Both the position numbers and the translations under genes were made by a program. A stretch of 64,000 nucleotides of DNA from a bacterium (GTDB lineage Bacteria > Patescibacteriota > Saccharimonadia > UBA4664). The DNA is taken from assembly GCA_016699105.1 (NCBI GenBank), contig CP064960.1, positions 1,074,715 through 1,138,714 on the forward strand. The letters run 5' to 3'. Position 1 is the stretch's first letter; each line of letters starts with the position of its first letter. This document shows positions 28,461 to 46,069 of the stretch, in pieces. The notes under the pieces are model-generated. The model saw only the letters and a list, made by a program, of their open reading frames with translations. It ran no database searches and was not told where the DNA came from.

Positions 28461-28462
28461 AG

Positions 28463-28544
28463 TGCGCGAGAGAGGAGTCGAACCTCCACGCCTTGCGGCA
28501 CCTGCCCCTCAGACAGGCGTGTATACCATTTCACCACTCGCGCG
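28463..28544 (-). tRNA. tRNA-Leu (anticodon GAG), CCA not encoded
   Basis: The reverse complement folds as GCGCGAG-TG-GTGAAATGGTATACAC-G-CCTGT-CTGAGGG-GCAGG-TGCCGCAAGGCGT (long variable arm)-GGAGG-TTCGACT-CCTCT-CTCGCGC-A. Confidence 0.85.
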
Positions 28545-32484: not shown

Positions 32485-32514
32485 TTGACTGATGCCAGCC
32501 AGGGGTGCAGCTGA

Positions 32515-32600
32515 CCCAACCCTAACCCGCCTGGGCGCACGCAATACTCCCACCCGGGAATAACGTCATCAGGCGGGGTATTGGCATGGATTAAACCCAT
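32515..32600. repeat. ~86-bp dyad-containing element, copy 1 (copy 2 at 33808..33893)
   Basis: Copy 1 is cccaaccctaacccgcctgggcgcacgcaatactcccacccgggaataacgtcatcaggcggggtattggcatggattaaacccat and copy 2 is cccaaccctaaccccgcctggggcgcacgcaatactcccgcccgggaatacgtcatcaggcggggtatttgcgtgggttaacccat. An inverted repeat cccgcctgg/ccaggcggg brackets a cccggg core. Confidence 0.45.
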
Positions 32601-32948
32601 TTCGCTCAGAACCTAGCAATAATTATAATTTGGTGGTATAACCAGGCTATGGCGGTCCCATCCGGGCCGCTTGTTCCGATTCGTCCCAACAAAGGGGAAA
32701 CGCGTGACCGACGAGCGACCAACCTTAACAATCTCAACCATGACATCCGGACCCCATAAAGCCACCTACCTAGTAGCCACCAGCAACACCGAGCTATTTG
32801 ACCTATATGATCTGACAATGTCGGGGCTATGGGCGGAGCTTAATAAATACCCAGCTACTTGTGCGGCCGTCCGGTGTATTGAACTCTGCCGCGGTCGGGC
32901 GGAAATCAGCTGTGGCTTGAGTTTGATGCCGATGCCACCGAAGGCATT

Positions 32949-33776: not shown

Positions 33777-33899
33777 CGCTCCCACCCCCGCCGGACGTAC
33801 CCGCCAGCCCAACCCTAACCCCGCCTGGGGCGCACGCAATACTCCCGCCCGGGAATACGTCATCAGGCGGGGTATTTGCGTGGGTTAACCCATATCGCT

Positions 33900-36617
33900 A
33901 TGGCTCGGTTCAACGCGGTCTTGAACCAGCTGCTGCAGCCCAGCGAACTGGTTCTGTCTGCCGCCGAGAAAGCCTCACAGCACAGGCAGGCCTGGCAAAA
34001 GCAGTACCACTTCGAATATACGACAAAAATTTTATCAAGACCGCAAGATAAGTATGATAGTGTAAGACTTATGAGCGAGATGCCTGAGAATAATGAGCAG
34101 CAGATATTCGGCTCACTTGATCTGCAACCTGAGTTGTTAACTCACCATGTGCCACCTGAGACTGAGCCCTCAAACATTGCTCCGCAAGAAGCTATCACTC
34201 AGATAGACGCAGTCGGCCCTGATTCGGCCATTGACGCACACCAGCTCGTTGATTGGATAGTGGCGGCCGAGCATGCACCCGATTCGGACTTATCAATCCA
34301 GCTTGAGAAAATGCGATCCTGGCGTTCTCCCGGCGACCAATATCGCATCAACCAGCCGAATAAATTAGCGCTCGATGCTACTATCATTGGTTTGGTTGCA
34401 ACAAGGCATGCAAAACTCGCCGAGAAACTTATTTCATCGTCCCAGCAAGAACTCCAAAATTTGCGCTTTGCCACTAGTCTATACGCCGAGCGCAATGGAC
34501 TAGACGAGGCGGCCAAATTAGCGATCGAGAGAGAAATAAATTCAATTGTACAAAGAAACCGTACAGCATTACTCTCCAGAATGACTATCAGTTCTGCCCC
34601 CGAAGGTTTTGCTGCCGTTGTGGTCGATCGAGCGGCCAATCCTGATAGTGCCGGTGCGATCTCCGAAGCGCAATGGCAACTCATAGGCCAGCTTGGCTCT
34701 GAGGCGCAAGCTTCCCTTCTCGCGAGCAGCCGAATGGATCGGACAGCTTGCGGGATCCAAGACCTTGACACTCATGGCTTGCTCGGTGATATGCCGATTC
34801 TGATAGGCCGCATTGACCAACTTGATGATCGTGATCAAACCGAAGCTTATCTGACGGAATACGGGCAAGCCGTCGGCAAACTCGCCGAAATGCAGCAATC
34901 CGGCCAGGAGCTACGTCTGCCTATTATTAAGCGAGAACTAGCTCAGTTTGCGCAGCCGGATCAGGCATTGGCGGCCAGTGAAGCGATCTATGGCGATCTA
35001 CCGCTCGATGTTGCCACAAGCAAACTGGCCGACTTATTTCGTGATCCGGCTCATCAACAAGACCTGGTGCCGGTTGACCCTCAAATACTTGCACAACTAA
35101 CTATGGCTCGAGTTCGTTTTGACGATTTGGGTGTTTTGGATGATCTGCTTCCACCTCTTTTGGACCGCATTCGCGATTCTACAGATCAACCACAGTTGGT
35201 CGAGGATATACTGACGGCAGTGGCGGCGGCACAAGCGCTCAAGGGTGAGCGACTGTTATACTTGGATCCAGTTATCCAGACAGATCACCCCGCAGAATTG
35301 GCAGCTAGTCTAGCCAAAGTCACGGGTTTGGCCGAGCCAATGAATGATCCAACCCGCGCCGAGCTCCTTCGAGCTATTACCGATGCCCCCTCTGCTCCGC
35401 AAGCCGTAGATATGCTTCAGTCTTGCAGCCAAGCTCTAGCGTCGCGGAGCCTAAAATTTGATAGTGAGTCCGATATTACGATATCTGACATGCTGCGACA
35501 ACTCTCCCCAGTAGCCGAACAGGTGTCCGAGGCTGACCCGCAAGTGCGAGCCGACCGTTTGTCGCAAGCTGCCGAGCGAATTGCTAGTAACTACCTCGTA
35601 GCGCGGGAGATTACTGATATTTACAACAAGAATTATGGTGAAGCAATATCTCTCGCAAAGGGCAGGCGAGCCGTGTTGTCCGATTGTCCAGAAATCGCCC
35701 GCCGAATGGCAGATATTGGGTGCAGTGGAGACGATGCTAATCGAATGTTTTCGACCTGGTCGTATCACAGTGAATATGCAATGGCATCATATGCCCGTGC
35801 GCAACGAGGCGAGGGTAAGGTTACACTTAATATGCTACCCGCGTTAGTAAACCTACAGCGCCAGCATATCGAAAAAAATCTGCGGAGTTATGAGGACTAC
35901 GTAGCTCGGTTTGGATCCGAAGAGGCACGCGAGATTATGACAATGTTCAAGATTACCAACTTTGAGCATGTGGGAGTAGATTTACTACATGACCAATTGG
36001 AACGATGGCGCTCCGGCGAACGGCCAGTTGAAAATCTTATGATTGTTTCTCGTGCCGACTGGAACGGAGCGAACTCCAACGCCGGACAAGATACGCAGGA
36101 GGTTTTCAAAGACACAAACTTTTTTGTTTTTGAAGCGGGTAGTGCCCGAGATCTCGACGACATTCGCCGCGCGGTTAAGGATCGCGAATTAAGTCATGGT
36201 CGAGTTCCCAAAGAGGAGAATGCAGTGAAAAATGTTGTGATCCACGCGCATGCCAATCCAGATGGTATTCTCTTGGGGTTAGATGGAGAAGCCATTAATG
36301 TCGGTCAGTATCTTAAGTTGCAAAAGCTTCCAAACGCCCGTGCTCGCACGTACGAAGAGGAGCTCGGCTCTGCCTACCGCATTATTATCCAGGCATGTAG
36401 TACGAAAGGTGAAAATACTAGTCGTTTCCTGATTGGTGCAGACGGTAGACTCGTCCCAGGTCCAAATATTGCAGCTACAATCCATGAATATCACCAACGC
36501 ACCGTTGAGTCATCGCCTGTACCCACCGTAGGTAATATCGTCACAGACGAGAATGATAAGGTTTGGTTCGGCATCGCGGGAGGCTACTTAGAAAGCACGC
36601 CCTACGAAAAGGTGTAA
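33900..36617 (+). CDS. Large (~905 aa) protein with alpha-helical N-terminal region and predicted C-terminal caspase-like (clan CD, CHAT/C14-like) His-Cys peptidase domain
   Basis: Three C-terminal strands match the caspase-hemoglobinase fold: NLMIVSRADW (first strand plus Arg), NVVIHAHANPDGILLGLDG (His strand) and YRIIIQACSTKGE (QAC-type Cys strand). Their spacing is about 70 and 48 aa. No P-loop was found. The likely start is ATG 33900, immediately after dyad-element copy 2. Confidence 0.55.
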   Translation: MARFNAVLNQLLQPSELVLSAAEKASQHRQAWQKQYHFEYTTKILSRPQDKYDSVRLMSEMPENNEQQIFGSLDLQPELLTHHVPPETEPSNIAPQEAITQIDAVGPDSAIDAHQLVDWIVAAEHAPDSDLSIQLEKMRSWRSPGDQYRINQPNKLALDATIIGLVATRHAKLAEKLISSSQQELQNLRFATSLYAERNGLDEAAKLAIEREINSIVQRNRTALLSRMTISSAPEGFAAVVVDRAANPDSAGAISEAQWQLIGQLGSEAQASLLASSRMDRTACGIQDLDTHGLLGDMPILIGRIDQLDDRDQTEAYLTEYGQAVGKLAEMQQSGQELRLPIIKRELAQFAQPDQALAASEAIYGDLPLDVATSKLADLFRDPAHQQDLVPVDPQILAQLTMARVRFDDLGVLDDLLPPLLDRIRDSTDQPQLVEDILTAVAAAQALKGERLLYLDPVIQTDHPAELAASLAKVTGLAEPMNDPTRAELLRAITDAPSAPQAVDMLQSCSQALASRSLKFDSESDITISDMLRQLSPVAEQVSEADPQVRADRLSQAAERIASNYLVAREITDIYNKNYGEAISLAKGRRAVLSDCPEIARRMADIGCSGDDANRMFSTWSYHSEYAMASYARAQRGEGKVTLNMLPALVNLQRQHIEKNLRSYEDYVARFGSEEAREIMTMFKITNFEHVGVDLLHDQLERWRSGERPVENLMIVSRADWNGANSNAGQDTQEVFKDTNFFVFEAGSARDLDDIRRAVKDRELSHGRVPKEENAVKNVVIHAHANPDGILLGLDGEAINVGQYLKLQKLPNARARTYEEELGSAYRIIIQACSTKGENTSRFLIGADGRLVPGPNIAATIHEYHQRTVESSPVPTVGNIVTDENDKVWFGIAGGYLESTPYEKV

Positions 36618-36761: not shown

Positions 36762-37691
36762 TTAATTGGCTGTCGATTTTTGGTATAGTGAGCTGATTTC
36801 ACCTGGTGTGTTGGCCTCAAGATATTGACCGCCAGTGCCACTGGCAAGGGCATTGATGGTGGCGGGGTTAAAGCCTGTACCCTTTGATGCCAACCGCAAA
36901 TATGGGTAGGTTGGCTTTGGCAGCGGCGTCCTTGACACTGGCAAGGGTTGATTTTGAGGCAGTGTCTTCTCCATCAGTTAGTACGGTGATGGCTTTGCGA
37001 CCGCAAGCTGGCAGGTTGGTAATGGCTAAGTTGAGCGCATCATAGATAGCCGTATTGCCACCAGCGACCAAACCAGTAGCAGCCGACCGCGCGGCCGTTT
37101 TATTGGTCGATAGTCCGGCTCGCACTGATGCGGTCTGATTAAACTGAATTAGACCGACTTGGTCGTTTGGCTTGAGCCGGTCGATATAACTAGCGGCAGC
37201 TTGGCGGGCATTGCTGATCGCTGTACCAGACATACTACCCGACACATCGACGGCCAGCATATTAGCCAGTGGCGCTTGCGTTGTATTGACGGCATTGAAT
37301 TCGAAATCGTTCATTTCTTGGCCGTCAAGGTACACTTTGACATTCTTTTACTGAAGCTCGTGTTGACGTCACCAGATTGGGCACTTACCGAAACGTAGGC
37401 CGCAATACTGGACGCAGCACAGGTATCAATTTGGTTGATTCGGAGCGTCAGCCCCTTGAGGTTCTGAAACGATACCACACCGCCGCTGAGCGACGACACG
37501 GTTCCCTTGTTGAGGCTGGAGCCTGGGCCAGTACCATTATTTGATGCCTGGCCAGATGGCGTTGGGGTTGGGCTTGTGGTTTGGCTTGCTGGCTTGATGA
37601 GTAGTAGCATTGCTAGCAGCGCGATAATTACCATCAGTACAGCCCCAATAGCCGTCATCAGCCAGAATAATTTTGATTTCCGAATGACCAT
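36762..37691 (-). CDS. Membrane-anchored von Willebrand factor A (vWA) domain protein, split into 3 ORFs
   Basis: 37311..37691 carries an N-terminal TM segment. 36868..37335 carries the MIDAS motif DVSGSMSG and a vWA body. 36762..36974 carries the C-terminal vWA remainder. Confidence 0.6.
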
Positions 37692-40535: not shown

Positions 40536-40802
40536 CTAATATACCTGATTATGCGATCCTACATCTAGAAACTCGTAGTGGTCTTCGGTCTCCCGATACA
40601 CAACTCTTAGATCGCCGCCAATTGAAAAAGCGCGCAATCCCCTCTTTGTCCCAACAAGTGGATGATCGTCCAGCGGGTAATCGCGTACGCCCTCTGTAAA
40701 TAATTGTAGCCGGGTCTGGAACTGTTTCTTGAGTTTGGGGTTCGTGGAAATGCGACTTTTGAAATTCTTTTCGAACTTACGGTGACGGCGTATAGGCTTC
40801 AT
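40536..40802 (-). CDS. RelE/YafQ-family type II toxin (mRNA interferase)
   Basis: 88 aa. ...DYPLDDHPLVGTKRGLRAFSIGGDLRVVYRETEDHYEFLDVGSHNQVY is a typical RelE/YafQ C-terminus. It sits 3 bp downstream of the antitoxin. Confidence 0.7.
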   Translation of the reverse strand: MKPIRRHRKFEKNFKSRISTNPKLKKQFQTRLQLFTEGVRDYPLDDHPLVGTKRGLRAFSIGGDLRVVYRETEDHYEFLDVGSHNQVY

Positions 40803-43018: not shown

Positions 43019-43426
43019 GTGGAGCCACATTATTCTTTTATAGTTAATATCATAGCCTATGAGATGCATCTGACGAGGTATAATTCGACTATGGATCAGA
43101 CTGCTCCACCTACTTTATGCGAATCAAAAGCTGAGACGCCGAAGCAAGTCGTAAGCTTAGGCACTATAGCAGACTATCTAGTTAGCTACACACAAAAGTA
43201 CAGACAAGAATACGCTAGGCTAATCGAGGCACCCCCGAAAGGGGCTGGCTTCCCTGATATCGTTAAATCACCTTATCTTGAGCGCAGCAATGTAGCATTG
43301 TATGTGGCACGTGATGGTGCTGTCTTATTGGACGCTTCAGAGCCGGAATACGATTGGTATATAGCGGGTGGACCGGCGTTTATGGTAGATTACCCCGACC
43401 TAATTCGCGTGTGCCAGAGAGTATAA
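43019..43426 (+). CDS. Hypothetical protein
   Basis: 135-aa ORF immediately upstream of the DUF4263-like gene. Confidence 0.35.
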   Translation: MEPHYSFIVNIIAYEMHLTRYNSTMDQTAPPTLCESKAETPKQVVSLGTIADYLVSYTQKYRQEYARLIEAPPKGAGFPDIVKSPYLERSNVALYVARDGAVLLDASEPEYDWYIAGGPAFMVDYPDLIRVCQRV

Positions 43427-43546
43427 AATCCATCTTGCGCTCTGCGGGAATATTGGAAAACCAATTGGGATATATCGATTGGTATTTCCGCCGGAGAAAA
43501 TTCAAATGGTAATTGGTTAACAGATTTTCCGGCTGCTGTAGACCAA

Positions 43547-44518
43547 TTGTCGGTCTCAGTCCCTGACGGACCACAATTTAAGATCTTGAAGTTAGATGTG
43601 CCGTGGAATGAGCTGATTTCTCAACTAACCTTCGGCGCTTACGGCCCAATTCTTGATGTGCATTTGCCCTCTACCTCGAATATCAACTTCTGGCAGCCGA
43701 TGATCGTAAGAAAGCTGGGTTTTCTTACGGCCGATCGTGAGCATCGGAGATTTTTGCAGTATGCCGAATTTATTCGTCATACTGAGGACGCTGCATGGGA
43801 TAAAAGGGGTATTTGGGCTCGATCGAAGCTTGACGTTCAAAGAGACCTTGCAAATGCAATTGCAATGTCAGAAAAAGATGGGGCTACGATGTCATTCGGC
43901 GAAAATCAACATGATGTACTCATCCAAATTAGGGATCGACTTGCTCGCCTAGAGACAGCCGTAAAGGGGCTTGAGGAGCTGCTACTAAAGGACCCCGGGG
44001 ACGATGAACGGCTCTACCAGAAGTTTCTTGAAGATAATCCATTACTGATAGATATATATGGCGAGGTAATACCTAGGCCACGGCTTGTATATCCGAGAGA
44101 TACGTCACCCTTAGGTAAGACATATATTGAGCCCGATTTCATAGTGCGTAGACCAGGGAATCGGTATCGCTTAATTGAAATTGAACGCCCTTCAAAGAAG
44201 ATGGCCACAAAAGCCGGGCAAGCGCGTGCCGAGACAACGCAAGCTTCATTTCAAATCTCGGAGTTTAAGGATTTTATTAAAGAGCACCACGATGTTATCA
44301 AGGATAGATTTCCGGGAATCCATCGGGCGACAACAAGTACTATCATTATCAGTCGAGCTACTGAAGAGAGTTTTGGTGGTAGGTCCAATATAAGAAGGCA
44401 GCTCTTGCTTCTCGAGAGCCAACTGGGAGTAGAAGAGCTTCTGACGTATGATGATCTATTATCTCAGGCCAAAGTTGCATTACAACAACTTGCTGGTATC
44501 ACACCAGATGTTAGCTAG
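43547..44518 (+). CDS. Shedu/DUF4263-like PD-(D/E)xK-fold nuclease candidate
   Basis: The C-terminal block ERLYQKFLEDNPLLIDIYGEVIPRPRLVYPRDTSPLGKTYIEPDFIVRRPGNRYRLIEIERPS resembles the DUF4263 pattern (FLe.nPwLl ... PDF.l ... vvElKrp). The canonical Lys is replaced (EIER), so activity is uncertain. Confidence 0.4.
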   Translation: MSVSVPDGPQFKILKLDVPWNELISQLTFGAYGPILDVHLPSTSNINFWQPMIVRKLGFLTADREHRRFLQYAEFIRHTEDAAWDKRGIWARSKLDVQRDLANAIAMSEKDGATMSFGENQHDVLIQIRDRLARLETAVKGLEELLLKDPGDDERLYQKFLEDNPLLIDIYGEVIPRPRLVYPRDTSPLGKTYIEPDFIVRRPGNRYRLIEIERPSKKMATKAGQARAETTQASFQISEFKDFIKEHHDVIKDRFPGIHRATTSTIIISRATEESFGGRSNIRRQLLLLESQLGVEELLTYDDLLSQAKVALQQLAGITPDVS

Positions 44519-45606: not shown

Positions 45607-45984
45607 CCTTTACGATTGAATGATGACTATTTTAGCATAAGTAGTACGTTTTGTCAAATATTGTGCTCAAACGAGCGCCTGCAGTGCATCGATTTTCATA
45701 GCCCAAAAGAGGAGTCGAACCCATGATTTTGCATAAGCCAAGCCATAATAAGCAAAACGGCCCCAAGATAAAGTATTATCTGGAACCGTTTTGTGGCTTG
45801 AGGGAGCCATATAATAACTTGGTGCGCGAGAGAGGAGTGAGGCTAAAGCCTCCTCCCTGCGGTGCTCGCAAAATAGCCGAGCAAGCTCGGCTATTTTGCT
45901 GCGCTCCTCGTCTACCGAACCTACGGTTCTCCCCTTTTTCTCCTACCATAGTAAAAACCCGACCTCGTGTCGGGTTTTTACTAT

Positions 45985-46069
45985 GGTGCGCGAGAGAGGA
46001 GTCGAACCTCCACACCGTTGCCGGCACTAGAACCTGAATCTAGCGTGTCTACCATTCCACCACTCGCGC
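45985..46069 (-). tRNA. tRNA-Leu (anticodon CAG), CCA encoded
   Basis: The reverse complement folds as GCGCGAG-TG-GTGGAATGGTAGACAC-G-CTAGA-TTCAGGT-TCTAG-TGCCGGCAACGGTGT-GGAGG-TTCGACT-CCTCT-CTCGCGC-A-CCA. A terminator hairpin aaaaacccgacacgaggtcgggttttt follows. Confidence 0.85.

Follow-up and report, generated by a model that had tools for sequence, protein, structure and literature searches.

Clan CD proteases, among them caspases, metacaspases, separase, CHAT proteases and toxin CPDs, are decision-making or self-activating enzymes. In TPR-CHAT (Csx29), SAVED-CHAT and separase, a C-terminal clan CD protease is controlled by a large helical or sensor part. Structures of CHAT proteases (PF12770) include SAVED-CHAT (8tl0), TPR-CHAT/Csx29 of the type III-E Craspase (7y83, 7zoq, 7y9x) and DdvA (8rot), which is an anti-sigma factor with a CHAT domain. 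The Peptidase C80 domains of MARTX, TcdA and TcdB are self-cleaving (3fzy, 3ho6, 8yjc), and caspases, metacaspases and the paracaspase constitute Peptidase C14. The family that is structurally nearest to the protein described here is that of the DUF4347 proteins (PF14252; P. aeruginosa Tce1, or PA0256, and Tce2; PDB 9qpe chain G). Tce1 and Tce2 have themselves been proposed to be His/Cys proteases (PMC13323088). They are proteins of 190-310 aa that are carried as Hcp-loaded T6SS cargo by a Gram-negative host, whereas the CPR protein is about 850 aa long, adds a family-specific helical subdomain preceded by a long N-terminal stretch, and has no T6SS context.

The window is a 64,000-nt stretch of DNA from a member of the Saccharimonadia (81% identity in UvrA). 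On its + strand, an ORF of 913 aa runs from a TTG start at 33876 to 36617, and the longest ATG-initiated version, at 33900..36617, encodes 905 aa plus the stop codon. The latter is the large ORF of the original prediction and is real; the chance of a run of 913 codons without a stop at this base composition is about 2.5e-20. The true start of the gene is likely ATG 34071, which is Met58 in the 905-aa numbering used throughout. This assignment is suggested by homologue alignments that start at ~aa 74-130 (that is, downstream of Met58), by the duplicated non-coding element that lies 5′ of 33900, and by the NCBI call of an 848-aa CDS at 34071..36617 on the + strand ('hypothetical protein IPG36_06945'), a record that is 100% identical to the ORF product. 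The + strand CDS encodes an acidic N-terminal variable region (aa 58-580; 34071..35639) with low column conservation in a 37-sequence alignment, a family-specific all-helical subdomain of 8 helices defined by modelling and conservation (aa 581-705; 35640..36014), and a predicted peptidase domain of clan CD, or caspase-hemoglobinase, fold (aa 706-905; 36015..36614). A hydropathy scan found no signal peptide or TM segment in the query or across its family, and the product is probably a soluble, cytoplasmic protein of ~850 aa.

The C-terminal region had been proposed to be caspase-like on the basis of three strings, NLMIVSRADW, VVIHAHANPDGILLGLDG and RIIIQACSTKG, which are present at aa 712, 779 and 827, respectively. 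The spacing claimed for them, ~70 and ~48 aa, is close to the measured distances of 66 aa (Arg718-His784) and 49 aa (His784-Cys833). An AF2 model of aa 581-905 built with a 76-sequence MSA (pLDDT 95.3, pTM 0.92) predicts with high confidence that the last ~200 aa adopt the caspase-hemoglobinase fold, and the helical subdomain and protease core form a single confident unit in this model; a model of aa 651-905 from the single sequence was unusable (pLDDT 44). The predicted strands are β1 (712-717), β2 (741-746), β3 (778-782), β4 (827-831) and β5 (868-870), with a hairpin at 839-854, and structure comparison identifies an α/β/α sandwich with a caspase-like central sheet. Comparison of the model by Foldseek matched caspases-8/7/3/1 at probability 0.95-0.99, and matches in the fold search were almost exclusively to clan CD, with Tce1/Tce2 as the best structural match. 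A search of BFVD returned unnamed or weak matches only. Because the fold search gave clan CD almost exclusively, papain-like, NlpC/P60 or LRAT, sortase, YkuD and amidotransferase identities were rejected.

The putative catalytic pair occurs in the order that is characteristic of clan CD, with β3 followed by His784 and A/G785, and β4 by A/S/G832 and Cys833. The predicted catalytic His784 (codon CAT, 36249..36251, + strand) lies two residues past β3 and is kept in all 76 aligned family members, and Cys833 (codon TGT, 36396..36398, + strand), the predicted nucleophile, lies two residues past β4 and is kept in 75 of 76. The family consensus around the dyad is FIIxAHGNPxG, which contains the AHG motif, and ILxACSTAG. 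An hhalign register places His784 on His121 and Cys833 on Cys163 of caspase-3, at an hhalign probability of only 4.9%. The acidic residues Asp720 (after β1; 70/76) and Glu745 (at the end of β2; 75/76) are also conserved, and in the helical subdomain W620, F683 and W703 are invariant and Q699 is near-invariant. Two longer motifs, GNRERxxGRxP and NDYxRHLG, are conserved as well. The Arg that ends the first strand had been taken as diagnostic, but Arg718, the counterpart of the Arg after β1 that binds P1 Asp in caspases, is found in only 38 of the 76 members and is no conserved trait of the family. The Gln of the caspase-like QAC is likewise variable (24/76).

With regard to sequence profiles, the HMM searches that had been proposed against Pfam CHAT, Peptidase_C14 and Peptidase_C13 gave no link to clan CD. 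CHAT (PF12770) had no matches, either in the query at E ≤ 10 or in 37 relatives at E ≤ 1, and Peptidase_C14, C13, C80, C11 and C25 matched neither the query nor the 37 relatives. DUF4347 (PF14252) did not match the query and matched 1 of the 37 relatives at E 0.039, below the gathering threshold. Profile searches of Pfam, NCBIfam, PADLOC and PHROGs with the complete sequence, its C-terminal 205 aa and the 37 relatives yielded nothing significant, and phmmer and hmmsearch against PDB sequences missed the clan CD families, producing helical-repeat noise in the N-terminal part only. The protein thus differs from Peptidase C14 members, with which it is about 12% identical, and from CHAT proteases, as SAVED and TPR domains also went undetected. 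The statement that the remainder of the protein holds no NTPase or other recognisable motif agrees with searches of Pfam, NCBIfam and PADLOC, in which no domain was detected in the query even at E ≤ 10; PHROGs gave no match for it either. The earlier interpretation as a whole is partly supported: the predicted caspase-like fold agrees with the AF2 model and Foldseek, the CHAT assignment has no HMM match, and the conflict-system role has no partner gene.

The protein had also been described as an orphan, a description that is valid only for word-indexed searches, where both the single sequence and a 37-sequence profile recovered only the self-match. It does not apply overall, because an exhaustive homology search yielded 101 representatives at E ≤ 1e-3, of which 25 were at E ≤ 1e-30. 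Named members come from Roizmanbacteria, Woesebacteria, Microgenomates and one Saccharibacteria MAG, and the gene thereby falls into a protein family that had no annotation and whose members are mostly from CPR/Patescibacteria. The closest relatives of the query are only ~30% identical to it; no close relative turned up when GTDB species genomes were scanned by pattern, and a scan of viral contigs limited to two peptide patterns found no family member. Evolution is rapid in the N-terminal ~520 aa, and no Pfam domain was detected in aa 58-580 of the query or in the 37 relatives. Its matches to PDB sequences are weak and confined to designed helical-repeat/PPR proteins, and the region is presumed to be helical or α-solenoid-like.

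The neighbourhood is much as originally described, with two flanking tRNA-Leu genes, tRNA-Leu(gag) at 28462-28543 and tRNA-Leu(cag) at 45984-46069, a VWA gene (36868-37335), a YafQ/ParE-type toxin gene (40536-40802) and Shedu SduA (43019-44518; PADLOC E 6e-101), the last split into two ORFs. Rfam detected just the two tRNAs over 27.5-47 kb. Repeats resembling the tRNA-Leu 3′-end occur at 28.0-28.5 kb and at 40.3-46.0 kb, which suggests serial integrations nearby; those at 40.3-46.0 kb bracket the Shedu and toxin/C39 cassettes and leave the family gene outside. No integrase Pfam match was found among the window ORFs scanned, and GC content is unremarkable. Across 19 loci (the window and 18 others) there is no conserved neighbour, the family gene being the sole gene common to all, and it is a stand-alone gene. 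Recurrent neighbours are genes for a LeuRS-type tRNA synthetase, TsaD, Mur ligase, S6/S18/SSB, FtsK and RNase J. A 357-aa gene upstream was considered as a conserved partner and rejected, as it is an ORFan without a homologue at the other family loci.

We consider it probable, if by no means certain, that the gene represents an unannotated CPR family whose soluble ~850-aa product is a clan CD His/Cys protease under N-terminal control, with a role outside defence. The C-terminal domain would be an active His/Cys endopeptidase, and the helical N-terminal region, by analogy with TPR-CHAT, SAVED-CHAT and separase, would gate its activity or pick its substrate. Asp720 and Glu745 might fit a preference for basic P1 residues, as in metacaspases and paracaspases, a low-confidence suggestion. 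A domain without hydrolytic activity, whether a pseudo-protease scaffold (as in Raptor and c-FLIP) or a transamidase or ligase (of GPI8 or legumain type), is very improbable: acceptor-substrate machinery is not seen nearby, and the near-absolute conservation of His and Cys in a family of 24-35% overall identity speaks in favour of catalysis, since the dyad is as a rule lost in pseudo-proteases. Self-cleavage, with the C-terminal domain working in cis as do the C80 domains of MARTX, TcdA and TcdB, or as has been proposed for DUF4347 effectors, is a possibility of fairly low probability. Here a trigger, possibly a host-cell factor in episymbiosis, would free the N-terminal helical part as the functional or effector portion; in contrast to the C80 domains, the CPR domain has no C80 HMM match and does not lie within a secreted toxin.

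The original prediction made the protein a helical-sensor-plus-CHAT protease that serves as a conflict-system (anti-phage or abortive-infection) effector on a tRNA-bounded mobile island. This is improbable, although the gene does sit between two tRNA-Leu genes with Shedu SduA, the toxin and VWA genes and many ORFans within 10 kb, and the nearby repeats suggest serial integrations. The distance of its relatives, together with the pattern-based GTDB result, is compatible with transfer, its variable N-terminal part is reminiscent of defence sensors and the architecture parallels TPR-CHAT and SAVED-CHAT. However, PADLOC and PHROG searches were without match, the repeat-bounded cassettes (40.3-46.0 kb) exclude the gene, no integrase was found among the ORFs scanned, GC content is not deviant, and no member was seen on viral contigs in the pattern-limited search. 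None of the 19 loci holds a CRISPR, CD-NTase, gasdermin, STAND or EAD partner or any linkage to gRAMP/Cas7-11, CD-NTase or cOA signalling, gasdermin or a STAND NTPase, and the CRISPR, CBASS and sigma-factor partner genes of CHAT proteases are absent from them as well. Moreover, homologues sit among ribosomal, tRNA-synthetase and cell-division genes. Because housekeeping genes surround the gene in most lineages, a lineage-wide physiological or regulatory role would be more likely than a mobile defence module.

A clan CD-like family that is conserved across ultrasmall CPR bacteria, beside housekeeping genes, escapes all sequence libraries searched. Its alignment could seed a Pfam or NCBIfam model to annotate proteins now called 'hypothetical' in 100 or more sequence clusters, and His784/Cys833 provide a testable handle on CPR epibionts, whose cell biology is largely unknown. 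It is a rather doubtful proposal that this is the founding member of a family of caspase-like proteases specific to CPR/Patescibacteria, which would form a lineage-wide and chromosomally stable part of the episymbiotic lifestyle and have no function in defence. In one version the protein would be a self-cleaving effector activated by a host factor, akin to DUF4347 and CPD toxins and delivered without a T6SS; in another it would be a master regulatory protease for attachment or dormancy. If the protease is host-directed or self-cleaving, DUF4347/CPD effector logic would extend to bacteria with no T6SS genes at these loci, and if it is merely regulatory, the family assignment would be useful but incremental.

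The query departs from the family consensus at several conserved positions, having K760 for G, L764 for R and R816 for N. Directly 5′ of the ORF is a ~95-nt GC-rich hairpin-forming element (33806..33899, + strand), a second copy of which, at 32512-32606, lies in front of the ORFan gene that comes before this one. Fold z-scores of the copies against shuffles are -2.0 and -1.3, marginal at best, and the element might serve both genes as a promoter, leader or terminator.

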